In this document: positions 1,310 to 58,400 of the stretch, in pieces | Numbering within the stretch: position 1 is the first letter of the stretch | How the letters are laid out: each line of letters begins with the position of its first letter | IMG/VR virus record: IMGVR_UViG_3300032235_000808 | Span: 16,717 to 80,716 of that record | Length of the DNA: 64,000 bases | Source of the DNA: a virus | Lineage: Duplodnaviria; Caudoviricetes | Strand: one strand, 5' to 3' | Made by a program: the position numbers and the translations under genes | Notes under the pieces: model-generated | What the model was told of the DNA's origin: nothing | The model's input: the letters and a program-made list of their open reading frames with translations, nothing else | Database searches by the model: none

Positions 1310-1339
1310 TTTATTATTAAACTTATATATAAATATCTG

Positions 1340-2875
1340 TTATGAAACTTTTTTAATCATTTCAATTAGTTTTTTATTATCTATAGATGTTTTCAAAGCC
1401 TGTTCCACATTATACTTGTATGTTTCCATCCACTTTAAAAAATCACCGTTTAAATTATAGATTTCGTTTTCTTTTTTAAATATTTCTTTCGATATTAAAT
1501 TATTGTCAAGTCCAACACCAACTTCAATATAACTAATATTTGGAAATGTTTCAACAATATTTCTATCAAAAATATTTGGTGTACGTTCTTTCCAAGTTTT
1601 TAATTTTTTATCTAATGTCTTTGGTATAATTGTACTTTTCTTATAATCTTTCCAAAATGGTGTATCGTCTCTATCCGTTAAATAATGGTAATATAAGAAA
1701 TCTAAAACACTATCATTAAAGTTATTGAAATACTCATTATACTCCTCTCTAAATAAATCGGAAGGATATGTAAAATTCATTTTGGTTAGATATGTTAATT
1801 GGGATATTGCAATCCATATTGATGTGGCTTCAATTGGTTCTGTAAATCCGGCACTTAAACCGACAGATATACAATTTTTAATCCACACATCTTTAAATCT
1901 ACCAGCATTAAAATCAATTACTTTATTAATCTTAATTTCTTTACCAACCATTTCTTCCACCTCTTTCTTAGCTTCATCCACATTGATATAATTCTTATCA
2001 AAAATATATCCACAACCATATCTACTTTGTAATGGTATTTTCCACATCCAACCATATTTCATGGCAATTGCATCTGTGTGTGGTTGTATGATGTCATCTT
2101 CTTTATCTAAGAAGAATGGTATTGCACAATTAACTTTAAGTTGATTCTCATATGATATCCACTCACTCTCATAATGTTTACCGATGATTAATCTTTTAAA
2201 CCCGCTACAATCAAAAACAAAATCAATATTAGATACTGTTATGTCCTCAACTAAATTAATTGAACATATATTTCCGTCATTATCATTTTGAATATCTTTG
2301 ACTGTACCTTCAATTCTTTTTATACCTCTTTGTTCTGCTTTTTTTCTTAAAAATTTTGCCATTAAAGTAGCATCAAAATGATATGAATAACTTACTACCT
2401 TTTTGAATGTGTCATCGATATATAGATAAGGTGACCTATTATTATATGATAATAAATGGGTGATTAATCTGTCATCTAATTTTTCATCGTTTGCTATTAA
2501 ATTTGTAATAGTATAATTTGTTCCATTAGGTGTTAAACCAACTGATGTGACATTTCCTGATTTAACAATTTCCTCAAAATTTAATGATTTATCATCAACA
2601 CCAAAACCATGCATGTATTTTTCACCATTACCTCTCCAATTCTCAAAATTTATACCTAATTTAAATGTGGCATCGGTCTCCTTTATAATTTCTTCTTCAC
2701 TAATTCCTAAATTATAAAGAAAATATGGAAAAATGGGTACTGAACCTTCTCCAGCACCTAAAATACCAATTTCTTCACTTTCAATAAGTGTTATGTTATA
2801 ATCAGGTGCAATTTTGTTTAAATAGAGTGCGGTTAACCAACCAGCGGTACCGCCACCAACAATAACTAATTTCAT
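1340..2875 (-). CDS. Flavin-dependent halogenase (tryptophan halogenase family)
   Basis: GGGTAG FAD motif, GAGEG, ATFKLGI (catalytic Lys region), DCSGF, GWMWKIP (WxWxIP), F-T-EPIEATSI. Confidence 0.9.
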   Translation of the reverse strand: MKLVIVGGGTAGWLTALYLNKIAPDYNITLIESEEIGILGAGEGSVPIFPYFLYNLGISEEEIIKETDATFKLGINFENWRGNGEKYMHGFGVDDKSLNFEEIVKSGNVTSVGLTPNGTNYTITNLIANDEKLDDRLITHLLSYNNRSPYLYIDDTFKKVVSYSYHFDATLMAKFLRKKAEQRGIKRIEGTVKDIQNDNDGNICSINLVEDITVSNIDFVFDCSGFKRLIIGKHYESEWISYENQLKVNCAIPFFLDKEDDIIQPHTDAIAMKYGWMWKIPLQSRYGCGYIFDKNYINVDEAKKEVEEMVGKEIKINKVIDFNAGRFKDVWIKNCISVGLSAGFTEPIEATSIWIAISQLTYLTKMNFTYPSDLFREEYNEYFNNFNDSVLDFLYYHYLTDRDDTPFWKDYKKSTIIPKTLDKKLKTWKERTPNIFDRNIVETFPNISYIEVGVGLDNNLISKEIFKKENEIYNLNGDFLKWMETYKYNVEQALKTSIDNKKLIEMIKKVS

Positions 2876-12910: not shown

Positions 12911-13264
12911 TTAGTTATTTGCGTTTTCAAGCACGGATAATACTACATCTAATACTCCAGATTCGTTGGTTGTCATTACTAATTTATCATTTCTTTCCAA
13001 TACAAGTTTACCACCAAAAGGATTTAACGATTCTTCAGTTGGTATTGCACCATTATTAAGTAATGTAATTGTGGTGCCCGTATATCCACTTTTTATTATC
13101 CCAACACTAACTCTTTTAGTGGTGGCAGACATATTTGTAACCTGTGCAGATAAAACAATTGTTGAAATGTCCAAATCTTCTTGGTATATGTCATTACTAC
13201 CACTTGTTAATGTTGTGGTAATTAATCGGAATTTATTTAAAGGTAATGAACTAGTAACTGCCAT
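12911..13264 (-). CDS. Small virion structural protein
   Basis: 117 aa, beta-rich, IVLSAQVTN...GKLVLERND; lies between fibre genes. Confidence 0.65.
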   Translation of the reverse strand: MAVTSSLPLNKFRLITTTLTSGSNDIYQEDLDISTIVLSAQVTNMSATTKRVSVGIIKSGYTGTTITLLNNGAIPTEESLNPFGGKLVLERNDKLVMTTNESGVLDVVLSVLENANN

Positions 13265-13290: not shown

Positions 13291-15462
13291 TTAGGTCTCA
13301 AGTGCTAAATTTATTGGTGTTATTTGTGCAGAAATTGCTTTATTAAACGTTCTACCTTCAATCGTACCCGTTTGTTGTCTAATAACAAAGTCGTTACCTT
13401 GATATTGGTCACCCGTTTCATCACCACCTGTGTAATAAACACGACCACCACTCTCTTGGAATACTCTGATTGTTAAATTAGTTTCTCCAACACCACCTTG
13501 GTTAATTGGTAGTCCTAAAAAGTTAACACCTGAACCCGCATATGAGAAATCATGTGACGTTGATGTAATTAGTGAACCAAATTCGACTAACAAATCTCCA
13601 CCGGCCTCGTCAATAATTACTCTCTGTATGGTATCTTCAACAACATCTAATAATTGACTCACTTTGGTAATTGTCGAAGCACTTATTGAACCAAATAAAT
13701 TATCGGGGTCATCTACAAAATATTCTCTAATGTATTGGTATGCCCTAACAAAGTCATCCGCAATACCCGTATTTCCAGTTGTAATTGGGAAAGAAACGAC
13801 AGCACCCTGTGTAAAACCACTCTGAACAGGTAATGTTTGCGTCTGACCCGTTGTTGTGTCTTGACCAACAAAGAATCCCGACGCTATTTGTGAAACACGT
13901 GCAACTACGGGTGATAATAAATCATCACAGATGGCATCGATTAACAATCCTGAATCCTTAATTGTTGACGCATATATTGTGGAACCGGTATTACTATACG
14001 ATGCCGCATATGTACCATATAATGCCAATTGTGAAATCATATATGTTTGAATATCGGTTTTCTTTGTTGCAATGTATGCCGAAGCAACTGAATCAACGGT
14101 GGTACCCGTAACTAATGTAATATCCGGTTTTACTAATATTCTTAACCCTTTTGAACGTAAACCATAATCACCAAATGTTGTATTTGAGTTTAACAATGAA
14201 GCGTGTCCACCATCAATACAATAAACACCGACTCTACTAAAGTTAGTAAAGAATGATACCATTTGACCGTATCCTCGACCTCTGGCACACATACCAATAC
14301 CATTAAAAGCAACCTGAGTATATGAATCCACAATCATTGATTTAAGTGGACTGTATGGGTCTAAAACGGAGTCATCTATTAACATTCCACCCGGTCCATT
14401 ACCCACCAACGGATTTGCGTTATCAAAATCTAATGGAGTGTAGAACTTATTGAATGGTGTGTTAATTGCTGAACAGTTTTGTACATATGGTGATGTTGAA
14501 ATGTATGCACCCGGTGCAAATGCGAAGAAGAAACCACTTCTTGGGTCTTCTAAATCATCAATTTCACAACCTTCCAATCTTAATCCTTGTGCGTAACAAC
14601 CATTATTCATTAAAAATAGATTATTACCTTTTGTTCCATTAGTAGGTCGTACAACTACAGACCTTAAATCATCACCTAAAAGTGAAACATTACTTACTAA
14701 TGTAATTGGTGCCTCTTCAACATAGTATCCACTTTTAACACGGATACTTGTTCTATAAGGATAAGGATTTGGTGGATTTAATGCGAGTGATGCAGACGCC
14801 GCTTGTGCCGCCACTTTAATTGTTCTAAATGGTGTCGATAATGTTTTTCCATCATTTGAATCACTACCATCTTCACTAACATAAAATACTTTTTCAGTAT
14901 AACCTACGTTAGTTAAATTACTTCCATCACCATAAATTGAACCTGATACCTTTAACGAACCCGTAATTTCTGTTTTAGTGTTTATTCTTAAACCTTCGGT
15001 ATTTGAAATGGAGGCCGTTGCATTACCATCGGCAATTCTTGTTGTATTTAATCCGGTAACTCCACTTATTGGTATATTAATTAATTGACTACCGTCACCT
15101 CTAAATGAACCACTAATGTATCCAGTATCTTGTACATGTAGATTACTACCACTTGTTAATATTAAATCACTATTTTGTGCAATTAAACCAGTATCAATAT
15201 AACCAATTCCATCGGTAACTATCAATGAACCTGTTATTCTTTGAGTACCTTCTAATCTAATACTACCACTAAGATTAATAGAACCTGTATTCGATGCGTT
15301 GGTAATAACTAGTTCTTCAATCGATGTTCCTAATGAACCCGATTTTGCCATGAACGCCTTACCGTCAGTTGTGTTTAATGCTAATTCACCTAATTCAAGA
15401 TTTGAATTTGTTGGTTTTTGACCTGATACACTACTCCTACGCAGTCTAATGATTTGTGCCAT
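13291..15462 (-). CDS. Tail spike/fibre with probable pectin-lyase-like beta-helix
   Basis: N-terminal MAQIIRLRRS...LELGELALNTTDGK fibre anchor; FYVSEDGSDSNDGKTLSTPFRTI; IRVKSGYYVE; LLGDDLRSVVV. Confidence 0.7.
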   Translation of the reverse strand: MAQIIRLRRSSVSGQKPTNSNLELGELALNTTDGKAFMAKSGSLGTSIEELVITNASNTGSINLSGSIRLEGTQRITGSLIVTDGIGYIDTGLIAQNSDLILTSGSNLHVQDTGYISGSFRGDGSQLINIPISGVTGLNTTRIADGNATASISNTEGLRINTKTEITGSLKVSGSIYGDGSNLTNVGYTEKVFYVSEDGSDSNDGKTLSTPFRTIKVAAQAASASLALNPPNPYPYRTSIRVKSGYYVEEAPITLVSNVSLLGDDLRSVVVRPTNGTKGNNLFLMNNGCYAQGLRLEGCEIDDLEDPRSGFFFAFAPGAYISTSPYVQNCSAINTPFNKFYTPLDFDNANPLVGNGPGGMLIDDSVLDPYSPLKSMIVDSYTQVAFNGIGMCARGRGYGQMVSFFTNFSRVGVYCIDGGHASLLNSNTTFGDYGLRSKGLRILVKPDITLVTGTTVDSVASAYIATKKTDIQTYMISQLALYGTYAASYSNTGSTIYASTIKDSGLLIDAICDDLLSPVVARVSQIASGFFVGQDTTTGQTQTLPVQSGFTQGAVVSFPITTGNTGIADDFVRAYQYIREYFVDDPDNLFGSISASTITKVSQLLDVVEDTIQRVIIDEAGGDLLVEFGSLITSTSHDFSYAGSGVNFLGLPINQGGVGETNLTIRVFQESGGRVYYTGGDETGDQYQGNDFVIRQQTGTIEGRTFNKAISAQITPINLALET

Positions 15463-15528
15463 ATATATGGTTCTATTTTATATAAAATCTTGTGATATAT
15501 ATCACATTTAATTTGACCTATATAGGTC
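15459..15528 (-). promoter_or_regulatory. Array of four perfect TATATA-centred palindromes in the spike gene leader
   Basis: CCATATATATGG 15459-70, ATTTTATATAAAAT 15475-88, TGTGATATATATCACA 15491-506, GACCTATATAGGTC 15515-28. Confidence 0.75.
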
Positions 15529-15579
15529 TCTATATAAATACACAAAATTTCTATTTAAATAAATAAAATGTGAAAAAAA

Positions 15580-17790
15580 TTATAAACCGTATGTGGTTTT
15601 AATGGCATTGAAATTTGTGGTAATCTCAGCACTCGATAATGCTCTATTATATACTCTCATTTGGTAAAACACAGGTTGGTTTGCGGTAACTGAACTATTT
15701 AATCTATCGGCAGGTCCAGTTCCCGTATTTACGTGTCTTGCACCAAAGTAAAAATCACCAGTTGCATATCCACCAGCTGGGTTACTAAGTGTTGCCGTTG
15801 AACCGAATTGTGTGCCGTTTAAATATAGAAGTTTACTTGTATTATCAATTACGAAGACCCAATGTCTAATTACATTACTAGCAGTTATTGTTGCATTTGT
15901 TACATTTGCTGTAGGAGAACCCCATGTTATTGTTGTGGAATTTGCCATATATGCAAAATACCCCCTACTAAAACTATAAGCCTCATTACCCCAAATACTA
16001 GCCCAATGTGAATTCGGGTTAAAAGATGCAACAATTTCAATTGTTGAGGTTGCTCCCGTAATATTATATGGAATACTAATATATCCCGTACCTGTAGAAT
16101 CGGTATTATTTAATTTAATACCACCACCATTATTTGAAACATATGATGTTGTACCATTTAATGTTGCATTAAAACCATTACCCGAAGTATCACTCCAAAC
16201 TGTACCCGAACTAGGTGCCGAAGCTAAATTCATAATCAAACCATTCGTCACAATTGCATTTGAACCTGAACTTGGTGTTACTGTTGGTGTAATTGTTGAT
16301 GTTGGTGTAATGGTTGGTGTTATAGTGTTAGTCGGAGTTGGGGTAGGTGTGACAGGTGTTGGTGTGTTTGTTGGGGTCATACTAGGTGATGGTGGTGGTC
16401 CCAATAAACTAACCTTAATGTAACCACTACCAGTATTATATGTATTTAAATTTTCAACAGTATACCCTTCAAATGTTGTTAATGAATTATAGTTACCATC
16501 TGATGTTCCAATATATGAAATACTTCCACTAATATAGGAACCTCCTCCTCCACCACCATCGGATTGTGTTCCACCATTAGAGAAACCAGTACCACCGCCT
16601 GAATATCCACCACCCGCACCTGCGGAAATGATACCATTACCACCTCCACCACCACCGAATCCACCTCGGCTTGATGCGTATGAAGATGGGTCACTCCAAG
16701 AATTGTTTGTACCTCCACCTTTAGAACCGCTAATAAATGAATAACCACCTTCTCCATAGTTTGCAACATAACCAAATGGTTTTGTTAAAGTACCATTACC
16801 ATTCATACCGTGACCATAGAAACCCGCACCCGCACCTCCATCATATGTGTTAGAACCACTATGTGATGTTCCACCATTACCATTTATCCCACCTAAAGAG
16901 CCTCTTCTTGATGTTCCTCCAGTATTTGTTGTTACACCATCTTTACCATAATACGGTCCACCGGCAAATGATGTATAATGACCTGTACCTCCACCACCAC
17001 CTGCAACTATTAACGGTGTTTGTTGTGAACCTGAGATAGCCACGAATGTACCTCCACCACCACCTAAACCTTGGTAACTACCTGATTGATATATATTAAC
17101 ACCACTTGCGTCATAATATTGACCCGCAACCATTGTTAATTTTTGACCTTGTGTAAGTTGGTATCTTGCTTTAACTACGGCACCTCTACCATATGTTTGT
17201 GTTGAACCGACAGCTCTTGCTGCTCTTGAACCTGCAACTTCAAATTCATATGTTGCCGTCTGTGGTACGGTCCAAACTTGATATCCTTGGAACGCTCCTG
17301 TTGTAAATAATGATGTATCTGTTGCCCAAGATGCTGACCCACTATATGCACCAACTAATGATGAATATGTTGGACCCACATCACCTGTTGTATTTGCAGT
17401 TGTAAATGTAAAACCTGTAAAATAATATAATGAACTTTCAATAATCGGTGACGTGGTTACTGTAGGTGTTACAGTTGGGGTGACCGTACTTGAAGGTGTA
17501 TATGTTTGAGTTGATGTTATGGTAGGTGTTACCGTTGCGGTTGGTGTAACACTATTTGTTGGTGTAATTGTGTTAGTAGGTGTAACTGTATTTGTTGGTG
17601 TAATAGTTGTTGTTGGTGTTACTGAATTAGTTGGCGTAATTGTGTTAGTTGGTGTAATAGTTGGAGTGACTGTTTTAGTTGGTGTTGGGGTATTTGTTAA
17701 ATTTTGTGTTGGGGTCGGTGTAGGTGTTGATGGCGGTACAAACGCATCAAGACTACCAACTACAAACCCATTTTTAAAAATTATACCCAT
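15580..17790 (-). CDS. Virion adhesin: Thr-Pro repeats, glycine-rich domain, LamG domain
   Basis: TPTNTI repeats; WTVPQTATYEFEVAG...PLIVAGGGGG glycine-rich (ALK/LTK-like) domain; C-terminal YNRALSSAEI. Confidence 0.75.
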   Translation of the reverse strand: MGIIFKNGFVVGSLDAFVPPSTPTPTPTQNLTNTPTPTKTVTPTITPTNTITPTNSVTPTTTITPTNTVTPTNTITPTNSVTPTATVTPTITSTQTYTPSSTVTPTVTPTVTTSPIIESSLYYFTGFTFTTANTTGDVGPTYSSLVGAYSGSASWATDTSLFTTGAFQGYQVWTVPQTATYEFEVAGSRAARAVGSTQTYGRGAVVKARYQLTQGQKLTMVAGQYYDASGVNIYQSGSYQGLGGGGGTFVAISGSQQTPLIVAGGGGGTGHYTSFAGGPYYGKDGVTTNTGGTSRRGSLGGINGNGGTSHSGSNTYDGGAGAGFYGHGMNGNGTLTKPFGYVANYGEGGYSFISGSKGGGTNNSWSDPSSYASSRGGFGGGGGGNGIISAGAGGGYSGGGTGFSNGGTQSDGGGGGGSYISGSISYIGTSDGNYNSLTTFEGYTVENLNTYNTGSGYIKVSLLGPPPSPSMTPTNTPTPVTPTPTPTNTITPTITPTSTITPTVTPSSGSNAIVTNGLIMNLASAPSSGTVWSDTSGNGFNATLNGTTSYVSNNGGGIKLNNTDSTGTGYISIPYNITGATSTIEIVASFNPNSHWASIWGNEAYSFSRGYFAYMANSTTITWGSPTANVTNATITASNVIRHWVFVIDNTSKLLYLNGTQFGSTATLSNPAGGYATGDFYFGARHVNTGTGPADRLNSSVTANQPVFYQMRVYNRALSSAEITTNFNAIKTTYGL

Positions 17791-17842
17791 TATGTTTATA
17801 AATAGAGAATTTTTTAATTTAAGTAAATTAAAAATTGAACCA

Positions 17843-18974: not shown

Positions 18975-20642
18975 TTACACATAAGAACCCCCGTCAATCA
19001 CTGTCGAGAATACTAAAGCACCATTTGAATTCTTATAACCTAAAATTCCATCCATAACATCTGTTGTTGATGTTGTTGAAACATATCCTAAAATGTTAGA
19101 TGAATTTCTAAATACAATTGCAGATGAACTTAATGCATTATCAGTACCACCTGAATACGATAATGTTAAATTACCTGTTATTGTAGTATCACCTGTTCCT
19201 GAGTTAACACTAAATTTGTTAGTATTAAGTACCAACGTTGTACCTGAATAAGTTAATAAACTATTACCAATAGTGCCATTTGATGTAGCGATAGGGAATG
19301 TTCCGTCTGTTAAACTTGATTCAGAACCCATTGAACCAGTTGTTACACTAACAATTTTACCTGTGTTTCCGTTACTATATTGAACCAACCAATAATCATT
19401 TGTTGCATCCCATAAGAATGAACCTGATAATCCTGCTGAACCTGAATCATATGCCGATAAACCAGCATATCTATCAAATGGTGTATATGCATTAACTTGA
19501 ATAATATTATCACCAATATTAACTGTATTAGATTCTAAATTAACATTGGTTGCAGTCCCAAAAACTTCTAAATTACCTGATACATATAAATTACCGTTTA
19601 CACTTGTATTATTATCCAAATAAATTCCATTTGTACTATCAATTGTAATCGTTTGTAAATTATCGTCTATTTTTAAATAATTTGTGTCGTCACCAAAGAA
19701 ATTATATGTTGCATTACCTTTGATGTGAATATCAGAAGGTCCTCCCGTATTATAAATTCTAAAATCTCTACTATCGTTTAAATCTGGTTTCAAGTATAAT
19801 GAACCTGTACCTTGAATATTTGTTACTTCAAGTGCACCTGATAAATTTAAATTACCATTATCAAATGTTAATCCACTGTAATTTGTTAATAAACCATTAG
19901 CACCCGCAACAACTAATCTTTTTTCGGTTAAATCTTCTACATACACAGAACCCGATAATATGGTCGTACCACTTACAATTAAATCCCCCGGTAATGAGAT
20001 TGAATTAATAGCAATACTTTCCAAATTAATGTTTTCAATATACGCAGTTCCACTAACATACAAATCATTCCATGCATTATCGGCACTACCTAAATCGAAA
20101 GTATTATTTAACGCCGGAATCAATGATGAACTAATTTCACCATTAATGTTAACAGTATCACCCGTTAAGTTATCACCGATATTGATATTACCTCTTAAAG
20201 TAACATCACCTGTTAATGTGATAGAACCTGTTTGGTAAGTGTTACCGGTCATGTTTAAATCACCATCTAAACCTAAAGTTCCTGTTAATTTATTAATTGT
20301 AAGTCCTGAAATTGTATTTCCTTCAATATTACCTGTTAAATCGATATCACTATTACCATCCTTACTTAAGATGTATAATGTTTTGTTACCTGTAGCGTAA
20401 AAAGGTGTTCCGTCAATTACAGAACCGTAAGAACCAACTGAAATTGTTGGTGCGGTTGAACCTTGAAAAATTTTAGAAACTGGTCTATACGCACCAGCAA
20501 CACCTTCAGATTCACCAATGAACACCATTGGTCCGTTTAGGTCGTTGATGGAACCGGTAGCCATTACAAATTCACCAACCCTTGCGGTAACGTCTTTTAG
20601 AGTACCAATTCCACCTCTTCTGTGTTTAATTATTTGTGCCAT
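18975..20642 (-). CDS. Tail fibre protein
   Basis: MAQIIKHRRG N-terminus related to 13291-15462; GDNIIQVNA..YAGL..YDSGS..GSFLWD module; ends IDGGSY. Confidence 0.7.
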   Translation of the reverse strand: MAQIIKHRRGGIGTLKDVTARVGEFVMATGSINDLNGPMVFIGESEGVAGAYRPVSKIFQGSTAPTISVGSYGSVIDGTPFYATGNKTLYILSKDGNSDIDLTGNIEGNTISGLTINKLTGTLGLDGDLNMTGNTYQTGSITLTGDVTLRGNINIGDNLTGDTVNINGEISSSLIPALNNTFDLGSADNAWNDLYVSGTAYIENINLESIAINSISLPGDLIVSGTTILSGSVYVEDLTEKRLVVAGANGLLTNYSGLTFDNGNLNLSGALEVTNIQGTGSLYLKPDLNDSRDFRIYNTGGPSDIHIKGNATYNFFGDDTNYLKIDDNLQTITIDSTNGIYLDNNTSVNGNLYVSGNLEVFGTATNVNLESNTVNIGDNIIQVNAYTPFDRYAGLSAYDSGSAGLSGSFLWDATNDYWLVQYSNGNTGKIVSVTTGSMGSESSLTDGTFPIATSNGTIGNSLLTYSGTTLVLNTNKFSVNSGTGDTTITGNLTLSYSGGTDNALSSSAIVFRNSSNILGYVSTTSTTDVMDGILGYKNSNGALVFSTVIDGGSYV

Positions 20643-20683
20643 TCTTTGTTGTTTGTTTTATATTATAAATACTTTATTTTTGT

Positions 20684-27046: not shown

Positions 27047-27502
27047 TTACTTTTTCAAGTTTTGTTCTAATAATTTGTAGATTTCTGTTAACATATCAAG
27101 TTCCGACCTTGACTTTTTGTATTTAAAATCGAATAACTTATAAAAGTATTCCGAAATTTTACTTGACTCATTATCTAATTGTACAAAATAATAAGCTTCT
27201 AAAAAGAAATTCCAAAAATATTGGTAATGTTGACCTCTTTCTTTAAAGAATATTTTTTCTTTATTAAAGTTTTCTATTGTTTTATCCCAACACCACGTGA
27301 AATGATTCTTTTGGTCTTCTTCTGTTTGGATTACATCATTACCTAAATAAGTTTCATCAATTAGAGAATGGAATGAATAAATAAAGTCGTAAAAGAGTTC
27401 AATTCTTTCACGACTTATATTATATGCTTTGTACCAAATATCAATTTGATTCTTGTAATTCTCCGAAGTAATAAACTCTAAATAACCTTCTCTATTTTCC
27501 AT
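27047..27502 (-). CDS. Hypothetical protein
   Basis: 151 aa aromatic-rich, TYLG...HFTWCW. Confidence 0.7.
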   Translation of the reverse strand: MENREGYLEFITSENYKNQIDIWYKAYNISRERIELFYDFIYSFHSLIDETYLGNDVIQTEEDQKNHFTWCWDKTIENFNKEKIFFKERGQHYQYFWNFFLEAYYFVQLDNESSKISEYFYKLFDFKYKKSRSELDMLTEIYKLLEQNLKK

Positions 27503-35065: not shown

Positions 35066-35093
35066 TATATCTATTTTATATATAAATATAATG

Positions 35094-45267: not shown

Positions 45268-45292
45268 ATATTATAAATATTAATTTATTTAA

Positions 45293-49831: not shown

Positions 49832-49843
49832 ATCTTATAAATA

Positions 49844-52800
49844 TTACATTGTAAATATGTCTCCATATGTTTGACTACAACCGTTATTATCGGTAACTTT
49901 AACATAATAGTATCCAGGTGCAATACTATTAAATGTCACATTTGATGCGTCATATAATGTGTCAACCAAACTACCTCCGCCAATTTCATATGGTGCCGCA
50001 TAATCTCTATATAATTCAAAAGTTTTAGAACCCGAAGCTCCACCTGAAACAGACGCGTATATTTGGTCAAATGCAGTTTTTTGTGCAAATAATCCAAGAG
50101 CTGTTGGTTGTGTTACTGTTACGTTAAAAGTGACCTCTCTAAGAGCTGAATCTCTGACGTAGACAATATAATTACCTGCAGGTAAGTTAGAATAATTAGT
50201 TGACGATGTCCAATTTGAGTATGTTGTATAAACGCTATTTAATTTTGTTTGATAAGTTCCACCAAAACCACCGCTTATACCAGTTACCACTATCGAACCA
50301 TTTGACCCACCGTTACAAGATACGTTTGTTACTGTATTTGTTGCCACAATTGCTGCCGGTGTTCTTGTCATAGTTGGTGTTGGCGTTGGCGTTTTTGTTG
50401 ATGTACTTGTTGGTGTTTGTGATGGGGTAACATAACAATTAATTGTTACAAAATAAGTCGTTGATACGTTACCAAAAGTATCTCTTGCTTTTAAATAATA
50501 AAGTCCATCATTTAAACTACTAAATAGGTAAGGCGAACTATTGTATGAAAACCAAGACCCGCCATCATCAATTGTTAATTCATACGTTCCACCATTTCCA
50601 CCTGTTACTGAATTAACTGAAATTATACCAGATGTATTTGTTGTTCCAGCACAACTTGTTGTATATGATACGTTGATTGCTGGATATGTTGATGTATCAT
50701 TTATAGTTACAACACTTGATGTTGCAACAATACTTCCGCTAACACTACCTGTTCTAACGTACACAAAGAATGTTTCAGAACCTTCGGTTACTTGGTCCGC
50801 AGTAATTGAAACACTAAAACTACCCGTGTTACTATTAATTGTAAAGCTACCACTTGTTGAACCAAAATCAATAGACGATGATGAACCGTTAGTGTTTATT
50901 GTCCAATAAAGTGTAGTTCCATTTCCAACACGAGAAGTATTAACGTTAAATGTTAATGAAGAACCCTCATTAATATTTGAAAATGCCGGTGCCACAGAGT
51001 ATGTTGGTAACGGTGTTGATGTTGGTGTAATCGATGGTGTTTTTGTTTGTGTGGGTGTAATTGTACTAGTTGGGGTGTTACTTGGTGTTTTTGTTTGTGT
51101 TGGCGTAATTGTATTAGTTGGTGTGATAGTATTTGTAGGAGTGTTACTTGGCGTCTTTGTTTGTGTAGGTGTAATTGTTTGTGTAGGCGTAATTGTATTA
51201 GTAGGAGTGTTAGATGGTGTCTTTGTTTGTGTAGGCGTAATTGTTTGTGTAGGCGTAATTGTATTAGTAGGAGTGTTAGATGGTGTCTTTGTTTGTGTAG
51301 GCGTAATTGTATTAGTTGGCGTTACAGTATTAGTAGGAGTATTAGACGGTGTCTTTGTTTGTGTTGGTGTTATTGTATTAGTTGGCGTTACAGTATTAGT
51401 AGGAGTATTAGATGGTGTTTTTGTTTGTGTAGGTGTAATTGTTTGTGTTGGAGTCACACTTGGTGTTGGTGTATTAGTTGGTGTTATAGTATTAGTCGGT
51501 GTTATAGTGTTAGTTGGAGTTACACTTGGTGTAATTGTTTGTGTTGGAGTAATTGTTTGTGTAGGTGTTGTGGTTGGTGTAGGTGAAATACATGGTGCAG
51601 TTGCGGTAATTTGAGCATTACCACTAACATTAGTGATTGTTAATACATCACCACTACCATCCCCTTTTCTAATATAGAATGTAGAAACTCCTGTAGTACC
51701 TAAAGTTGTGTTTAATTCTGCTATAGTCCATGTGTCAGTTCCATTTGGTGATTGATATAAAACTTCATTTAATTCCAATGGTTGGTCAGCATCATAAATT
51801 AAAATTTGTGTACTTGGTGAATAACAAATAGAATAAGAATCGGTTGAGATATAATAATATACTCCGTCTAATGGATTAGATGTAGATGGTGTTACTGTAG
51901 CGGTTGGGGTAACTGTACTTGTTGGTGTAATAGTATTAGTTGGTGTGATAGTATTTGTTGGCGTGTTACTTGGTGTTTTTGTTTGTGTTGGTGTTATAGT
52001 TTTTGTTGGTGTAATTGTTTGTGTAGGCGTAATTGTATTAGTTGGGGTAATAGTATTAGTTGGTGTAATAGTATTTGTAGGTGTCTGTGTTGGTGTTGGT
52101 GTTGTAGTATTAGTAGGTGTGGTTGTATTTGTAGGTGTAACTGTTGATGTTGGAGTATTGGTTGGGTATGGTGTAGTTGCAACAGTAGATTCCGCAGTAA
52201 TAACAAACGATTCACCCTCATTAAGTGTTAAACCAGTTGCATTTGGTAAGTCGGTAGGATTATATGGATTAACTGCGCTATATTCATAAACTGTAGTTAA
52301 TGTGTTACCACTATCCGCAACTTGTACTTTTAAGTATAATTGTGAGCTATCTGTGTTTCCTGTCCATCCAATATCAAATGTTTCACCAACAAAGTCCGTA
52401 ATACTATATTTAAACGCTCCCGTTGTTGAGTTGAACTTAAATATGTCAGTTGCATTAGCAAAAATTGCCAACGTATTTGCATTTGTGTCTACTGTAACCG
52501 AACCTTGTAATGCACTACATTGAGGGAATTGCTCGTAGAACGACATATTGTTACTGAAAACAGAACCAAGATTTGTTGCTATTGTATTACCCGATATATC
52601 ATATAAATCAAGATAAATTGTTGTATGTGTTGTTAATGGATTTTCTGCGTCATAATTATCGGTATCTGGTCTAAACTCAAAATATGCGTTTTCTGGGTCA
52701 TCGGCATTAAACAAGTAAAGTACATCATCGTAGCTATTTACACAACTACCAGAGTAGTACGAACCTAAAGGTATTGGGAACTCGTTGTCAATATTAATAT

Positions 52801-55396
52801 CACCTCTAATAGTTGTTCCACCACTTGGGTCTAAGTATCCAACTACACAATTAACTGACAATCCAATGTATGCCGCAACATCTATAGTTGTACATCCCGT
52901 ATTAACTATGTTAAATGTACTACCACTATATGTTACAGTGGCACAGTTTTCAAATGTTCCGTATTCTGTTGGTGTTACATAATATGTAAATGTTGCAAAT
53001 TGTTTTGTTAAGTTATATGCGGAATATAGTGAACCATAAGGACCCGGGTCAGAAATTGGTACATATTCAGTTGTCAATAGACTAAATGGTGGGTGGGTTG
53101 AATCATCACAATTATTTGGTAAAAAACTATTACCCGCATATAATCCAAGTCTAGAATTTAATTTAATAGTAAAATTATCTGTTGTTTGGTTCCATTCAAG
53201 AATTTCATAACTTGAATCCAACATAAATGAAGAATTGGTATATACTAAACCATTTGGACCAGTGGAATTCGATAATTCCAAGAAATCAGGTAAGGTATCT
53301 TTAATTATAACATATGAACTTGGTGGTAATGCTCTATCGGATGATATTGAAAGTTCAAAACGAGCAGAAAAATCTTTAATTGGTAAATCTATTAATGTTT
53401 TAGTAATTGTAAGTTCCGGTGTATCAATAGTATAAGTTAATGTATCAGTTGTTGTCACATTACCATACTTAACAGTTGCAACATTATTGTATTCACCAAA
53501 AATTTTATGTCTGACAGTAAAACCTAAAGTGTAATTATCGAGATTAGAAATTCTTTGGTGTAAAGCATATTCTATTGTATTTCCTGTACAAGTAATACCG
53601 GCAACTGTATTATTTCCACCACCATTTGTACCATCACAACCTTGATACCAATATGATACGTCGGTACCAAATATTCCTAAAAATTCTTGACCGATTAACT
53701 CGTCATTATATTTTATGTAATTAAACTCGATTAACTCATATATGTCAGTATCAATAATATTTTTTAATATTACATCACAATATGTTTGTCCTGTTGAACC
53801 TGCAGCTAACTTTACGTCAACTTCAATAATATTTTCAGTATTATAATCATACGCTCTTCTTTCAATTAAAGTATCAACAACCGAATACGGTAATGTTGAA
53901 CCTGAACAGAAGTCAATTAAATGTGAAATAGGTACAACAGTTTGTGTAATATCAAATGTAAGTGGTGTTAAGTCGGATGTATGTGAACCACTATAATTTG
54001 TACCTAAATTAGTTGCGGTAGCTGTTAATGTTACACTATCCCATGTTTGTGGTTTTACAACAAATCCAAGAGTATAAGTGTGTCCATCACCAATTGGTTT
54101 ACGTAGTGTATATCTTATGGTGTTAAGTGTACAACCACCGGTTGTTCGTCTTCCATCACAACCATTTGTCTCATCATAATAATCATCAACAGGATAATCG
54201 ATAAAATTTCCATCATATAAAATATATTGGAATGGGTCTCTATCATTTGGTAAAACATAACCACTTGGTATTGTTAATGTTAGAGTTGTGTTACCAACAG
54301 TACATGATTCATTACCGCTAATGACAACTTCCATTATACTTTCTTTACAATATTCTAATGTTGACGAAGTATAACCCGTTACCAAATCATTATCATAATC
54401 ATAGTAAAAATATTTGTCAGTTGGGTAAACAGTAGTAGTTAAGGCCGGCTGGTCGAATGTTAACGTATCCGAATCCGAAACTATTTGTGACCCGTACTGT
54501 GCGGTACCTGTAACTGTAATTGCTCCATATGTATTTGGTAACACATTAAATCCTACTGTGTAATAATGACCTCTACCAATTTCTTTATATAGTTCAAGTT
54601 TTATAGTACCATACGTACATCCAAAACTTGTACCACTTATAATACCGTTACAACCATCATACCAATCGGTTACCGGTGGTCCAAAAATTCCACCACCAAC
54701 AGCTTGTCCATCATAGTAAACATAATTATACCCCCCATGTGTATATCCACTTGGTATTGGAATTTCAATATATGTTGTACCAACAGTGTAACCTTTAGTT
54801 GTTGTTATGTCAAATGTATACATAAATTGTTCACCACAGTAATTTACATTTGAGGTGTCAAAATTAACCGCCAATACAGGTACTTGAGTGGGTGTCATTG
54901 TAGGTGTTAATGTCTTGGTTGGTGTTACTGTTGGTGTAATAGTTTTGGTTGGTGTAATAGTGTTTGTTGGTGTAATTGTATTAGTTGGGGTGATAGTTGG
55001 TGTAATAGTGTTTGTTGGTGTAATTGATGGGGTAATGGTATTTGTTGGTGTGTTAGTTGGAGTATCGGTAATAGTTGGTGTAATTGATGGTGTAACCGTA
55101 TTTGATGGCGTGATGGATGGTGTGATAGTAAATGTGGGCGTTGTGGTTGGCGTAGGGGTATTAAATAACAATGTTTCGGAACTATTACAACCTATATTAA
55201 ATATTATAATTGATGTTGTATTATCAGGTACGGAAATACTAATTCCCGTTGAAACCGTTTCATAATTTAAATTTTCTGCAGGTGTATTTGATGAAATTAA
55301 AAGGGCGATGTTATTTGACCCAATAGAATCATAATAAACGGTATACGGTCCGACTGATGCTCCTGAAGTTAATTTTATGTTATAATATAATGCCAT
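49844..55396 (-). CDS. Giant adhesin-like virion protein: DUF11-like repeats, Thr-Pro stalks, Calx-beta-like domain, SprB-like repeats
   Basis: LTITKT..VIIKDTLP; INEGSSLTF...ADQVTEGSETF; VSCNGGSNGSI...NLPAGNYIVYVRD; YYVKVTDNNGC. Confidence 0.75.
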   Translation of the reverse strand: MALYYNIKLTSGASVGPYTVYYDSIGSNNIALLISSNTPAENLNYETVSTGISISVPDNTTSIIIFNIGCNSSETLLFNTPTPTTTPTFTITPSITPSNTVTPSITPTITDTPTNTPTNTITPSITPTNTITPTITPTNTITPTNTITPTKTITPTVTPTKTLTPTMTPTQVPVLAVNFDTSNVNYCGEQFMYTFDITTTKGYTVGTTYIEIPIPSGYTHGGYNYVYYDGQAVGGGIFGPPVTDWYDGCNGIISGTSFGCTYGTIKLELYKEIGRGHYYTVGFNVLPNTYGAITVTGTAQYGSQIVSDSDTLTFDQPALTTTVYPTDKYFYYDYDNDLVTGYTSSTLEYCKESIMEVVISGNESCTVGNTTLTLTIPSGYVLPNDRDPFQYILYDGNFIDYPVDDYYDETNGCDGRRTTGGCTLNTIRYTLRKPIGDGHTYTLGFVVKPQTWDSVTLTATATNLGTNYSGSHTSDLTPLTFDITQTVVPISHLIDFCSGSTLPYSVVDTLIERRAYDYNTENIIEVDVKLAAGSTGQTYCDVILKNIIDTDIYELIEFNYIKYNDELIGQEFLGIFGTDVSYWYQGCDGTNGGGNNTVAGITCTGNTIEYALHQRISNLDNYTLGFTVRHKIFGEYNNVATVKYGNVTTTDTLTYTIDTPELTITKTLIDLPIKDFSARFELSISSDRALPPSSYVIIKDTLPDFLELSNSTGPNGLVYTNSSFMLDSSYEILEWNQTTDNFTIKLNSRLGLYAGNSFLPNNCDDSTHPPFSLLTTEYVPISDPGPYGSLYSAYNLTKQFATFTYYVTPTEYGTFENCATVTYSGSTFNIVNTGCTTIDVAAYIGLSVNCVVGYLDPSGGTTIRGDINIDNEFPIPLGSYYSGSCVNSYDDVLYLFNADDPENAYFEFRPDTDNYDAENPLTTHTTIYLDLYDISGNTIATNLGSVFSNNMSFYEQFPQCSALQGSVTVDTNANTLAIFANATDIFKFNSTTGAFKYSITDFVGETFDIGWTGNTDSSQLYLKVQVADSGNTLTTVYEYSAVNPYNPTDLPNATGLTLNEGESFVITAESTVATTPYPTNTPTSTVTPTNTTTPTNTTTPTPTQTPTNTITPTNTITPTNTITPTQTITPTKTITPTQTKTPSNTPTNTITPTNTITPTSTVTPTATVTPSTSNPLDGVYYYISTDSYSICYSPSTQILIYDADQPLELNEVLYQSPNGTDTWTIAELNTTLGTTGVSTFYIRKGDGSGDVLTITNVSGNAQITATAPCISPTPTTTPTQTITPTQTITPSVTPTNTITPTNTITPTNTPTPSVTPTQTITPTQTKTPSNTPTNTVTPTNTITPTQTKTPSNTPTNTVTPTNTITPTQTKTPSNTPTNTITPTQTITPTQTKTPSNTPTNTITPTQTITPTQTKTPSNTPTNTITPTNTITPTQTKTPSNTPTSTITPTQTKTPSITPTSTPLPTYSVAPAFSNINEGSSLTFNVNTSRVGNGTTLYWTINTNGSSSSIDFGSTSGSFTINSNTGSFSVSITADQVTEGSETFFVYVRTGSVSGSIVATSSVVTINDTSTYPAINVSYTTSCAGTTNTSGIISVNSVTGGNGGTYELTIDDGGSWFSYNSSPYLFSSLNDGLYYLKARDTFGNVSTTYFVTINCYVTPSQTPTSTSTKTPTPTPTMTRTPAAIVATNTVTNVSCNGGSNGSIVVTGISGGFGGTYQTKLNSVYTTYSNWTSSTNYSNLPAGNYIVYVRDSALREVTFNVTVTQPTALGLFAQKTAFDQIYASVSGGASGSKTFELYRDYAAPYEIGGGSLVDTLYDASNVTFNSIAPGYYYVKVTDNNGCSQTYGDIFTM

Positions 55397-55401
55397 CTAT
55401 A

Positions 55402-58400
55402 TTAAATAAGGTTTGTATAAGTAAAAGTATTATTAGTTTTATTGTAAACAAATGTTGCAACTCTTTGGAAAACACCGTTCGAAGCAGTTACACGTGTAAC
55501 ATTTGATGTGTCCACTTCAACAATATCATTTGGATGTGACGTAACAGGAGCAAAATCAACTCCACCCGTGTTACTTGGTGATATATCAATTAATGAATTA
55601 ATCTTAATTCCTTTTGTAAATCTAATTCCAATATCGCCAGATGAACCATCTGTTCTTTTTCCAAATAAATCAAATTCAAAAACATTAACATTTGGGTAAT
55701 TTTGTTTTAATAATGCGATATTAATACCGAATCTATAGAATCCTGAAGTTGACTTACCAAAAGGTGATAATAAATAACTATATGATACCGGTACAACAGT
55801 TGACGGTAATCTTCTATTAGATTTAGTTGTTGATATAGAAACAAACTGATTAAATTCAGATGTTGATGATGTTGACTGTACTAACTTCATTTCAGTAACA
55901 CCTGAACTTACAAAAACATCAATTAATGCACTACCAACTGTAGTACTTGATGGTGGTTGTACTGTAATTTGGTTAATTTCAAAATTAGCCTCACAATCAA
56001 TACAGTTAAGTATACCATTATCATCTGTTAATGAGATATTAGTTTCGGTTGAATAACATGAACCGTCACACACTGAACTGTAGTTACAATTAACATATCT
56101 AATTGGGAAAAATACCACATTATTTTGATTAGTACCTGCCGCAATTGTTAATTCATAGGTGATGGTATCGGGTCCACTACTTCCAAAATCCTGTATATCA
56201 GTATAATCATATGTATATGTAAATGTAATGTCAATTGGTGCATTATATGGTGAACCATCAAGATGTTTTAATGTAATTGTATGGGTTTCAACAGTGTCAA
56301 AATATGAACCACTACATCCTTGTTGATATGTGATATCAATTGTTTCAGTGTAACACATATCAAAAAACACCTGTGTACCCGAAGGTGTAACAGTAACGGT
56401 TGGTGTTACAGTATTTGTTGGTGTTATTGACGGTGTGACCGTATTTGTTGGTGTTATTGTACTTGTTGGTGTTACAGTTGGGGTCTTAGTATTGGTAGGT
56501 GTAACAGTATTTGTTGGCGTTACTGTGTTTGTAGGTGTAATACTATTTGTTGGTGTAATAGTGTTAGTTGGTGTTACCGTATTTGTAGGTGTAATAGTGT
56601 TAGTTGGAGTTACTGTCGGTGTTTCTGTATTTGTAGGCGTAATACTATTTGTTGGTGTAATAGTGTTTGTTGGTGTAATAGTGTTAGTTGGAGTTACTGT
56701 ATTTGTAGGCGTGATTGATGCAGTTACGGTTGGTGTAACAGTACTAGTTGGTGTGGTGGTTGGTGATGAACCAGGTGATGATGTAATTGATGGTGTTGGC
56801 GTATTTGTTGGTGTGTTTGTTGGTGTTTCAGTTACAGTTGGCGTAATAGTATTAGTTGGTGTGGTTGTATTGGTTGGTGTGGTTGTATTGGTTGGTGTAA
56901 TAGTATTAGTTGGTGTACTTGTATTTGTAGGAGTAACCGTAGGTGTTTCGGTTACGGTTGGCGTAATAGTATTAGTTGGTGTGATTGTGTTTGTTGGTGT
57001 ATTTGTTGGTGTTTCGGTTACAGTTGGTGTAATAGTATTGGTTGGGGTAACCGTAGGTGTTTCGGTTGTACTTGGCGTAATTGTATTAGTTGGTGTGACA
57101 GTATTCGTAGGAGTAACCGTAGGTGTTTCGGTTACAGTTGGTGTAATAGTATTAGTTGGTGTGACAGTATTGGTAGGTGTGGTTGTATTGGTTGGGGTAA
57201 TTGTGTTTGTTGGTGTATTCGTGGGTGTTTCTGTAACACTCGGAGTAAGAGTATTTGTTGGGGTTACAGTTTGAGTAATTGTATTGGTTGGGGTCACCGT
57301 ATTTGTTGGTGTCTCGGTAACCGTTGTTGTAATTGTATTTGTTGGAGTTACAGTCGGTGTCTCGGTAACTGTTGGCGTAATTGTATTGGTTGGTGTAATA
57401 GTATTAGTAGGAGTAATAGTATTAGTAGGAGTAATAGTATTAGTAGGAGTATTTGTTGGTGTTTCAGTAATAGTAGGTGTAACACTTGGCGTAATCGTAT
57501 TGGTTGGTGTAACCGTAGGTGTTTCGGTTACAGTTGGTGTAATAGTATTAGTTGGTGTTACTGTACTTGTTGGTGTTTCAGTTGTGCTTGGTGTAATTGT
57601 ATTAGTTGGCGTTACTGTGTTTGTAGGTGTGTTTGATACGGTCACACTTGGTGTAATAGTGTTAGTTGGTGTTACCGTATTTGTAGGTGTTATCGTATTT
57701 GTAGGTGTTATAGATGAGCTTATAGCCGGTGTTACCGTATTTGTAGGTGTGTTTGTTGCAGTTACAGTTGGTGTAGGTGTTTGTGATGTTGGCGTTGGTG
57801 TTGGTGTAACACTTTTAGTTGGTGTATTTGATGGTGTGGTAGTTTTAGTTGGTGTATTTGATGGTGTAGTAGTTTTTGTAGGTGTGATACTTGGTGTAAC
57901 ACTTTTAGTTGGTGTATTTGATGGTGTGGTGGTTTTTGTTGGGGTATTCGTTGGAGTAACACTTGGTGTAATTGTTTTTGTTGGGGTTACAGTACGTGTA
58001 GGTGTAATTGTTTGTGTAATACTTGGAGTAATCGTAACTGTTGGTGTTACAGTTGGTGTAACAGTTGGCGTAGCTGTTGGTGTAGCTGTTGATGTTGCGG
58101 TTGGGGTTTGAGTTAACGCGTTTGGACAATGAAGATTAAAATTCCATAATGTTTCAGGGTCAACACTTGCGTTTACAACAATTTTTACCGTATTATCAAC
58201 GGAAGTAGTACCCGTTATCATAATACTATTAACACCCGTACCCGTATATGTTCCAATTAAATTACTTATAGGATAATAAATTTGGAAAGAATCATTAATT
58301 GTATATGCGTCGTATTCAAATATTGCCTCACCCGGATATATGTTACAATTTATAAAATAGGTTTGTCCAGCACCAGGTCCTCCATAGACAGGTACATCAC

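Follow-up and report, generated by a model that had tools for sequence, protein, structure and literature searches.

What do four tandem palindromes with a common TATATA centre do in the leader of a viral tail-fibre gene? The question is raised by a 117-nt gap between two minus-strand open reading frames (ORFs; 15580..17790 and 13291..15462) in a 64,000-nucleotide stretch of phage DNA, which is referred to as the window. The window comprises bases 16717-80716 of an 80,716-bp double-stranded DNA (dsDNA) phage contig (33% G+C; IMG/VR record IMGVR_UViG_3300032235_000808), and nearly all of its ORFs are carried by the minus strand. The leader holds a strand-specific array of hairpins with a fixed apex, which belongs to one gene, lies between a promoter-like box and the AUG, and includes the AUG. 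The best reading of the comparative sequence data is that the array is a cis-regulatory leader hairpin operator. On balance, we consider it probable that the palindromes reflect, at the DNA level, a conserved RNA element which acts in cis in one tail-fibre gene family, and that this element is read at its loops and controls translation. The features of the locus, in the 5' to 3' direction of the minus strand, are as follows.

15555..15564, minus strand: upstream AT-rich box ATTTATTTAA, about 13-15 nt 5' of TATTTATA and seen in the leaders of most relatives.
15533..15540, minus strand: TATTTATA box, a probable -10-like promoter element; hairpin 1 starts 4 nt downstream.
15515..15528, minus strand: palindrome GACCTATATAGGTC, hairpin 1, with a GACCU/AGGUC stem, an AUAU loop and the core UAUAUA, predicted to lie at the 5' end of the mRNA.
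15491..15506, minus strand: palindrome TGTGATATATATCACA, hairpin 2 (UGUGAU/AUCACA stem, AUAU loop).
15475..15488, minus strand: palindrome ATTTTATATAAAAT, palindrome 3, a lineage-specific addition that sits where relatives have a purine-rich (GGAG/GAGGG) box.
15459..15470, minus strand: palindrome CCATATATATGG, the start-codon hairpin (CCAU/AUGG stem, AUAU loop), with the AUG (15462-15460) in its 3' arm.
13291..15462, minus strand: the putatively regulated gene, encoding a tail fibre or spike of 723 aa whose N-terminal domain is conserved (MAQIIRLRRSSVSGQKPTN...; protein start MAQIIRLRRS).

Read along the minus strand, the gap has the order ATTTATTTAA, TGTATTTATA, 4 nt, GACCTATATAGGTC, 8 nt, TGTGATATATATCACA, 2 nt, ATTTTATATAAAAT, 4 nt, CCATATATATGG. 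The 723-aa protein matches tail-fibre families in PHROG (E 5e-45), and no solved relative of its N-terminal domain was found by sequence.

A first-pass annotation of the window had described four perfect TATATA-centred palindromes, the last of them containing the ATG, downstream of a TATTTAT motif. Its coordinates and sequences are exact, as the sequence and an exhaustive scan agree, and the motif corresponds to TATTTATA at 15533-15540 of the minus strand. The whole 80,716-bp genome contains 33 perfect palindromes of at least 12 nt, 4 of which lie inside these 70 nt, and the exhaustive scan of the same genome found no second palindrome cluster. The simplest explanation, that palindromes arise by chance in AT-rich intergenic DNA, draws on the TA-rich composition of the region and on palindrome 3, which is neither conserved nor stable. 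However, at least four palindrome centres with a half-length of at least 6 were found in at most 31 of 30,000 shuffled sequences (31/30,000 Markov-1 and 10/30,000 mononucleotide shuffles of the 127-nt leader), and these figures are conservative because the TA-rich composition of the leader was kept and overlapping centres in TA runs were counted separately. The first-pass annotation had asked how often shuffled leaders would give four such palindromes, and the answer is rarely. A genome-wide search like that proposed there for stem-TATATA-stem, made with the form stem-TAnATA-stem, found no enrichment outside the leader (18 on both strands, compared with 12.6 +/- 4.2 in shuffles). For hairpins 1 and 2 and the AUG hairpin, chance is refuted by their conservation and covariation in 61 distinct leaders and in cultured cyanophages, and the probability that we assign to this explanation is negligible.

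Relatives of the leader were collected from IMG/VR by protein searches, which returned 6 loci with the whole protein and 80 loci, on contigs of 4-335 kb, with an alignment of the first 65 residues. The resulting set of 81 leaders, including that of the window, contains 61 distinct sequences. At least two stem-TAnATA-stem elements (stem of at least 3 pairs, positions -90..+12) are present in 57 out of 61 distinct leaders, and leaders with 0, 1, 2, 3 and 4 elements number 1, 3, 19, 34 and 4, respectively. The common order is TATTTAT, often preceded by a terminator-like hairpin with a T run, then hairpin 1, hairpin 2, a purine-rich box and the ATG hairpin. Hairpin 1 of the relatives lies 4-6 nt past TATTTAT and has the form GACC-TAnATA-GGTC with the variants GATC, GACT and AACC. 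Hairpin 2 has the form GTGG-TAnATA-CCAC with the variants GTGA..TCAC, TTGG..CCAA and TAG..CTA, and GGG..CCC in distant relatives, and the last hairpin has the form CCA-TAnATA-TGG with the ATG inside. Palindrome 3 is present in 1 out of 61 distinct leaders, that of the window.

In 48/61 distinct leaders, hairpin 2 and the AUG are separated by the purine-rich box (GGAG or GAGGG). Shine-Dalgarno-like 4-mers precede 1 out of 74 genes in this genome, compared with 11 out of 74 in an in-ORF control, and 19 out of 197 ORFs in the relatives L130-L170, compared with 24 out of 197 in the control. As such 4-mers are avoided before genes and 48/61 fibre leaders contain GGAG or GAGG, the fibre gene is close to being the sole gene with such a box. 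In one relative, L027 (1371-1500), the leader is kept from the 3' half of hairpin 2 through the spacer to the AUG hairpin, whereas all upstream sequence is unrelated and coding-like, an apparent recombination junction within hairpin 2.

The array extends to cultured phages. A tblastn search with the N-terminal 65 residues identified 86 cultured-phage records, all with <60% identity, and 14 of the loci were read. Hairpins are present in 8 of the 14 (P-SSM2, S-CAM9, S-8S55, S-PRM1, DSL-LC03, DSL-LC02, RN05-S and the siphovirus S-CBS2). P-SSM2 carries AGCAG-TATATA-CTGCT and GG-TACATA-CC, S-CAM9 carries CCGA-TAAATA-TCGG and GG-TAGATA-CC, and the first hairpin of DSL-LC02 has 8 pairs, two of which are G-U. 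Hairpin 2 takes the form GG-TAnATA-CC in seven cultured cyanophages. No hairpins were found in 5 of the 14 loci (Limnohabitans DC31, Vibrio 1.208.B, Ralstonia PY059YO380, S-SKS1 and Sf-CH8), and P-HM2 has just a TAAATA, located within the upstream ORF. In five out of the six T4-like cyanophages that carry a hairpin 1 (RN05-S, DSL-LC03, S-CAM9, S-8S55 and S-PRM1) hairpin 1 lies about 5-6 nt past a (C)TAAATA(A/G) box, and in P-SSM2 the gap between the box and hairpin 1 is 3 nt. We take this box to resemble the cyanophage late promoter consensus; as the cyanophage hairpins follow it, the hairpins persist under a different promoter type. The sequence GGTANATACC occurs at 11 distinct sites in five whole cyanophage genomes. 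Six of these sites lie in the leaders described here, and the other five have no partner hairpin and no fibre gene behind them. No second hairpin array was found in the whole genomes of S-CAM9 and DSL-LC03.

A total of 46 of the 61 distinct leaders could be aligned; L027 was left out because of its foreign upstream half, together with 14 distant leaders that aligned poorly. The three-hairpin structure pairs 98.1% of 630 cells in this alignment, compared with 23-45% when the partners are slid by 1-3 columns, and both-sided changes occur in 7 out of 14 pairs. The covariation score is 0.218, compared with 0.108 +/- 0.008 in shuffled alignments, and 0 out of 500 shuffles reach 0.218, in a control that ignores phylogeny. 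Hairpins 1 and 2 were predicted unaided by RNAalifold. The share of paired cells is 100% in hairpin 1, where double changes occur in 3 of 5 pairs and 10 cells contain a G-U wobble on the sense strand (GU 9, UG 1). It is 99.6% in hairpin 2, again with double changes in 3 of 5 pairs (one pair is GC in 32 rows and AU in 13), and 93.9% in the start-codon hairpin. TATTTAT is unchanged in 46/46 aligned leaders, and the TAnATA cores of hairpins 1 and 2 (AnAU loops) are unchanged in 45/45 distinct aligned rows. Distant relatives and cyanophages place unrelated stems on the same core (GGG/CCC, ACACT/AGTGT, CAGCAG/CTGCTG and TGGTGG/CCACCA). The covariation shows successive hairpins whose stems vary freely and whose apex is the same, a putative AnAU tetraloop closed by a U-A pair. 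The compensatory stem changes that the first-pass annotation had proposed to look for around a fixed loop were thus found. Its description of different stems with a constant loop applies to three of the four elements, which recur in relatives with compensatory changes, and fails for palindrome 3, which is restricted to the window. The fixed loop itself stands as AnAU closed by U-A and needs one correction, as the position n varies.

This variation bears on the strand of action. Among 159 elements the six-base core varies solely at position 3 (T 90, C 49, A 15, G 5), so the DNA is a perfect palindrome only with n = T, which happens four times in this phage. Non-palindromic TAnATA cores number 69, compared with 5 cores of the mirror form TATnTA (n not A), and the cells that are not Watson-Crick pairs comprise 11 G-U, 1 A-C, 9 A-A and 2 A-G. 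The excess of G-U together with the one-sided variation of the core indicates that the element is strand-specific and points to sense-strand RNA rather than to a double-stranded DNA operator, the alternative that the first-pass annotation had also offered and that is now disfavoured. A dimeric double-stranded operator has symmetric conserved half-sites and a tolerant centre, whereas here the arms vary with compensation and the centre is fixed.

A broader explanation at the DNA level is that hairpins or cruciforms of the sense strand are read by the late transcription machinery or by a DNA-binding regulator, as pausing signals or operators. The elements directly adjoin the promoter box, those of the window are perfect palindromes without a spacer, the core TAAATA of the cyanophage late promoter is itself a TAnATA, and hairpin 1 of S-CAM9 and S-PRM1 contains GATAAATA. 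However, covarying stems around a fixed centre are the reverse of what a dimeric operator shows, and a symmetric double-stranded site is excluded by the 11 G-U versus 1 A-C and by the core asymmetry of 69 versus 5. Furthermore, n = A occurs in just 15 of the 159 elements, the promoter box TATTTATA of the window family is not a TAnATA, and a transcriptional site would need neither the overlap of the last element with the AUG nor its covariation with codon 2. We regard an action at the DNA level as unlikely.

The relationship with codon 2 is seen in the outer pair of the start-codon hairpin, which follows the coding sequence: with GCN as codon 2 the arms are CCA...TGG, and with TCA they are ACA...TGT (4 rows), so that the outer pair is CG in 31 rows and AU in 4. 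Distant relatives use a second register, GCCGT-TAnATA-ATGGC or CCAT-TAGATA-ATGG. The AUG therefore appears, from these alignments, to lie in the 3' arm beneath the UAnAUA apex in two registers.

The array is positioned relative to a putative promoter. The genome contains TATTTATA in the sense orientation ten times, and eight of these copies are intergenic, though intergenic DNA makes up 4.6% of the genome; of the antisense copies 0/3 are intergenic. The intergenic copies lie 4-70 nt ahead of start codons, mostly of structural genes. Examples other than the site of the fibre gene are as follows.

17797-17804, 20664-20671, 35081-35088, 45272-45279, 49836-49843 and 1328-1335, minus strand: other intergenic TATTTATA sites (eight intergenic in all).

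At three genes TATTTATA is just 4-6 nt from the ATG, which would imply leaderless or near-leaderless mRNAs. TATTTATA is the reverse complement of the T4 late motif TATAAATA, and from its sequence and distribution it is probably a phage late-type promoter, of which ATTTATTTAA is possibly a -35-like or UP-like element. The position of +1 at hairpin 1 is our assumption from the geometry of T4 late promoters. No terminator-like site was found in 15300-15800, and no T run follows any of the four palindromes.

The hairpins are specific to one gene. At the loci of the relatives, 85 elements with stems of at least 4 pairs were counted in 5,700 nt of leader sequence, compared with 3 sense elements and 1 antisense element in 174,669 nt outside the leaders. 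When IMG/VR was searched for the DNA pattern of hairpin 1 followed by hairpin 2 alone, 41 loci were found, and in 41/41 of these a gene starting with M[ASG]Q[IT][VL]KLRRS lies within about 30 nt after the pattern. The first-pass annotation had noted that the related MAQIIKHRRG gene lacks such a leader, and this is confirmed: the paralogous fibre gene (18975..20642), whose N-terminal part is 24% identical to that of the MAQIIRLRRS fibre, has a leader of 41 nt in which the TATTTATA box is present and hairpins are absent. Two relatives, L004 and L005, encode fibres with the same C-terminal part but without this N-terminus and have no hairpins, and in L003, which carries a diverged copy of the N-terminus, hairpins are present.

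The joint inheritance of the leader and the N-terminal domain, while the rest of the fibre differs, is also what would be expected of a recombination or mobility cassette, in which promoter, stem-loops and N-terminal block serve as a homology anchor for swaps of fibre modules. The absence of hairpins from L004 and L005 and the junction inside hairpin 2 in L027 are compatible with this, and a precedent exists in the PeSL cassettes of T4-type phages, which are described as promoter and stem-loop motifs tied to modular shuffling (PMC4122927). There, PeSLs are reported to consist of a sigma-70-like early or Mot-type middle promoter consensus with a stem-loop (a terminator according to the title) and lie preferentially in hyperplastic regions. 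The likeness is a promoter linked to stem-loops at the boundary of a variable module. In contrast to PeSLs as described there, the array has a fixed loop, is present in one copy per genome rather than many, and has its stem-loops downstream of a late-type box and not of an early or middle promoter. Furthermore, homologous recombination needs identity and not compensatory stem changes around a fixed loop. We regard the cassette explanation as very improbable.

The first-pass annotation knew of no named element of this form, and the searches made agree with this. A search of Rfam 15 gave no match to the leader (window 15300-15700, no match up to E = 10), and in 11 related and cyanophage loci it gave five matches up to E = 1, all of which lie outside the leader and far below the gathering scores. 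No description of the motif was found in a literature search. The main text of a report on 10,006 candidate structured RNAs, including RNAs from IMG/VR, contains neither "tail" nor "hairpin", and its supplementary tables may list the motif unnamed (PMC10690425). The hairpin array appears to be a previously unnamed RNA motif.

The predicted stability differs between the hairpins (-6.2 kcal/mol for hairpin 1 and -4.9 kcal/mol for hairpin 2), and the fold of the whole window leader reaches -19.7 kcal/mol (z = -2.2). In the minimum free energy (MFE) fold of 15430-15532 (minus strand), GUGAUAUAUAU of hairpin 2 pairs with AUAUAUAUGGCAC at the start, and palindrome 3 forms the tip; palindrome 3 forms only as the tip of this longer helix. 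The alternative fold is specific to the window and is possible because all four cores are TATATA. In it the AUG would be hidden more tightly than in the small hairpin that is conserved. In several MFE folds the 5' arm of hairpin 1 pairs over a long range with codons 8-9 (CGU AGG), and stem variants are tolerated there only through wobbles.

Several points weigh against an RNA operator that controls translation, in addition to the neglect of phylogeny in the covariation control. The AUG hairpin reaches no more than -2.3 kcal/mol, and palindrome 3 alone 0.0 kcal/mol. In ten aligned rows with AGT as codon 2 the outer pair of the AUG hairpin is broken, and folding predicts an upstream GAUUUA as the partner of the UG of the AUG in these rows. 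Compared with the other genes of the phage, the AUG is not predicted to be paired to an exceptional degree (rank 22 of 74 genes, median P(unpaired) 0.39). Single-stranded DNA hairpins also tolerate G-T wobbles, so the strand asymmetry alone is no proof of RNA. Metatranscriptome data contribute one run with 5% of the sampled words and two contigs that cover the coding part only, at <95% identity, leaving the leader uncovered. Finally, a tblastn comparison of 76 proteins of the window genome with S-CAM9 and DSL-LC03 (E < 1e-3) found no small shared protein that would be a candidate for binding the loops. The first-pass annotation had stated that the start codon is buried in a hairpin. The conservation of the AUG hairpin, including the co-change to ACA/TGT, upholds this, but burial in the thermodynamic sense is not unusual; as the occlusion is unexceptional, burial is a weak argument by itself, and conservation is the strong one.

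Some of the same observations would suit an RNA element that acts by structure only and has no dedicated factor, with hairpin 1 as a 5' stabilizer and the AUG hairpin damping initiation, or doing so in a temperature- or ion-dependent manner, to keep fibre output low. 5'-terminal stem-loops stabilize mRNA, as in E. coli ompA, and the position of hairpin 1, 4-6 nt past the box in the window family and about 5-6 nt in most cyanophages, is the geometry that a 5'-terminal stem-loop would have. The AUG is predicted to be paired in most relatives (P(unpaired) about 0.05-0.25), and the proteins common to the window phage and the two cyanophages include no candidate regulator. However, structure alone does not account for a UAnAUA apex that is invariant in three separate hairpins though the stems change, for loops that are not of the stable tetraloop types, or for a 3-bp GG-UAnAUA-CC hairpin that is kept across cyanophages, and the other late genes of the same phage have short, hairpin-free leaders. 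We consider an element without a factor possible but not likely.

For the operator, we infer an action as RNA, reading of the loops by a factor, control of translation initiation and perhaps protection of the 5' end. Transcription would start a few bases past the late-type promoter box (TATTTATA here, (C)TAAATA(A/G) in T4-like cyanophages), and the transcript would open with hairpin 1, followed by hairpin 2 and then by a weak hairpin with the AUG in its 3' arm. The loops do not change, are not of an intrinsically stable tetraloop type and are confined to a single gene in each genome, and would therefore be read by a trans-acting factor, most likely a protein. High-affinity binding may fall to the two stable hairpins upstream and regulation to the marginal AUG hairpin, whose occupancy would set the level at which translation of the fibre mRNA is initiated. 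Being at the 5' end, hairpin 1 may in addition shield the transcript from 5'-end-dependent decay. The purine-rich spacer would, in this phage, have given way to a fourth TATATA palindrome, so that the 5' half of hairpin 2 could pair with the AUG region.

By the same tblastn comparison, the window-phage proteins common to both S-CAM9 and DSL-LC03 are only fibre parts, an SbcC-like nuclease and a primase. The loops might be read by a factor of the host, by a phage factor that has diverged, or by the N-terminal domain of the fibre itself. A further candidate was the product of the gene directly after the fibre gene.

12911..13264, minus strand: 117-aa protein, directly after the fibre gene and in the same place in L001-L005 and in S-CAM9 (27047-27382 of KU686205.1).

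This neighbour was rejected as the binding factor, as it tracks the C-terminal part of the fibre even in L004 and L005, where there are no hairpins. Its structural model is a jellyroll (pLDDT 89), with an Ena pilin, a nucleoplasmin core and phage fibre or knob proteins as the best Foldseek matches, and judged from this model it is probably a fibre accessory or tip protein.

If the fibre's own N-terminal domain were the factor, the operator would be autogenous: unassembled fibre, or the nascent basic N-terminal domain in cis, would bind the UAnAUA loops and stop initiation. This would explain the joint inheritance of the leader and the N-terminal domain across unrelated phage families, promoter types and hosts, and also why the proteins common to the window phage and both cyanophages include no other candidate. 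However, N-terminal homologues without hairpins keep R8, R9 and K16, so the basic residues are no evidence for RNA binding. We consider the autogenous version rather unlikely; if true, it would couple fibre synthesis to assembly.

Several known systems resemble the proposed operator in part. In the coat operators of single-stranded RNA phages (MS2, PP7, Qbeta) a short hairpin holds the start codon, the loop is sequence-specific, the stem may vary and occupancy blocks initiation. The start codon of the regulated gene is likewise held in a hairpin here (in the 3' arm, in two registers), but in a dsDNA phage, with three hairpins (four in this phage) and an AnAU loop closed by U-A, without a bulged A and without sequence relation to those operators. 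Target leaders of CsrA/RsmA contain several hairpins with the same short GGA loop motif, the last of which overlaps the initiation region, and combine strong upstream sites with a weak regulated site. The array has three conserved sites, the last containing the AUG, and differs in its loop (UAnAUA, not GGA) and in serving one gene per genome instead of a regulon; no CsrA homologue was encountered, though no search was aimed at one. By analogy, the array would work like the CsrA-type multi-site leaders and the MS2/PP7 start-codon operators and is a member of neither group.

Phage T4 provides cases of post-transcriptional control, including autogenous control, in the RegA sites, the operators of genes 32 and 43 and the structured initiation regions of genes 25 and 38. 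As in T4, the hairpins lie within the initiation region of a late structural gene, but sequence and architecture differ and the array is also found in phages that are not T4-like; no RegA-like protein was found by tblastn to be common to the window phage and the two cyanophage genomes compared. The lambda nut boxB, which works with N, and HK022 put are small promoter-proximal RNA hairpins that act on elongation. They share with the array one or two small hairpins right after a phage promoter, with conserved loops and covarying stems. Here, in contrast, neither a boxA-like element nor a GNRA-like pentaloop is present, the last hairpin extends over the AUG and no downstream terminator logic is evident. 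The hairpin promoters of the N4 type, used by a virion RNA polymerase upstream of early genes, have a stem of 5-7 bp and a 3-nt loop, unlike the 4-nt loops and the late structural gene of the array.

With respect to the setting of the locus, the following other genes were noted.

15580..17790, minus strand: upstream gene, encoding a 736-aa protein with long Pro/Thr-rich (TPT) linkers on either side of a Gly-rich domain.
Window 1340-2875, and G000:C1:11541-13046 and 14272-15801, minus strand: tryptophan halogenase-like paralogues (PHROG match).
49844-55396 and 55402-59769, minus strand: adjacent giant ORFs (1850 and 1455 aa).

The 3' end of the upstream ORF (...TTYGL stop) is kept ahead of the leader in some relatives (L029 and L032). 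The three paralogous genes match a PHROG family annotated as tryptophan halogenase (E 1e-99 to 1e-112), and the sole match of the giant ORFs is phrog_15511, a family of unknown function. A megablast search with the 5-kb region gave no match among cultured phages, none of which is closely similar in DNA sequence. DNA that is near-identical or related to 13291-17790 is contained in metagenome runs of fresh water and lake water from several studies, with 0.20-0.92 of the sampled words shared, which is consistent with a phage of freshwater origin.

Tail fibres set the host range of phages, and to our knowledge almost nothing is known outside T4 about the control of their synthesis. The motif is conserved both in uncultured freshwater phages (50-335 kb) and in marine cyanophages in culture, and the latter (P-SSM2, S-CAM9 and S-CBS2) make it directly testable. 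In metagenomic phage contigs it is a practical marker of the start of this fibre gene and of its late transcription unit. If a factor that reads the loops exists, it and the array would form an RNA-protein recognition pair of a new kind, and a new level of control over late genes would come to light in phages that are ecologically dominant.

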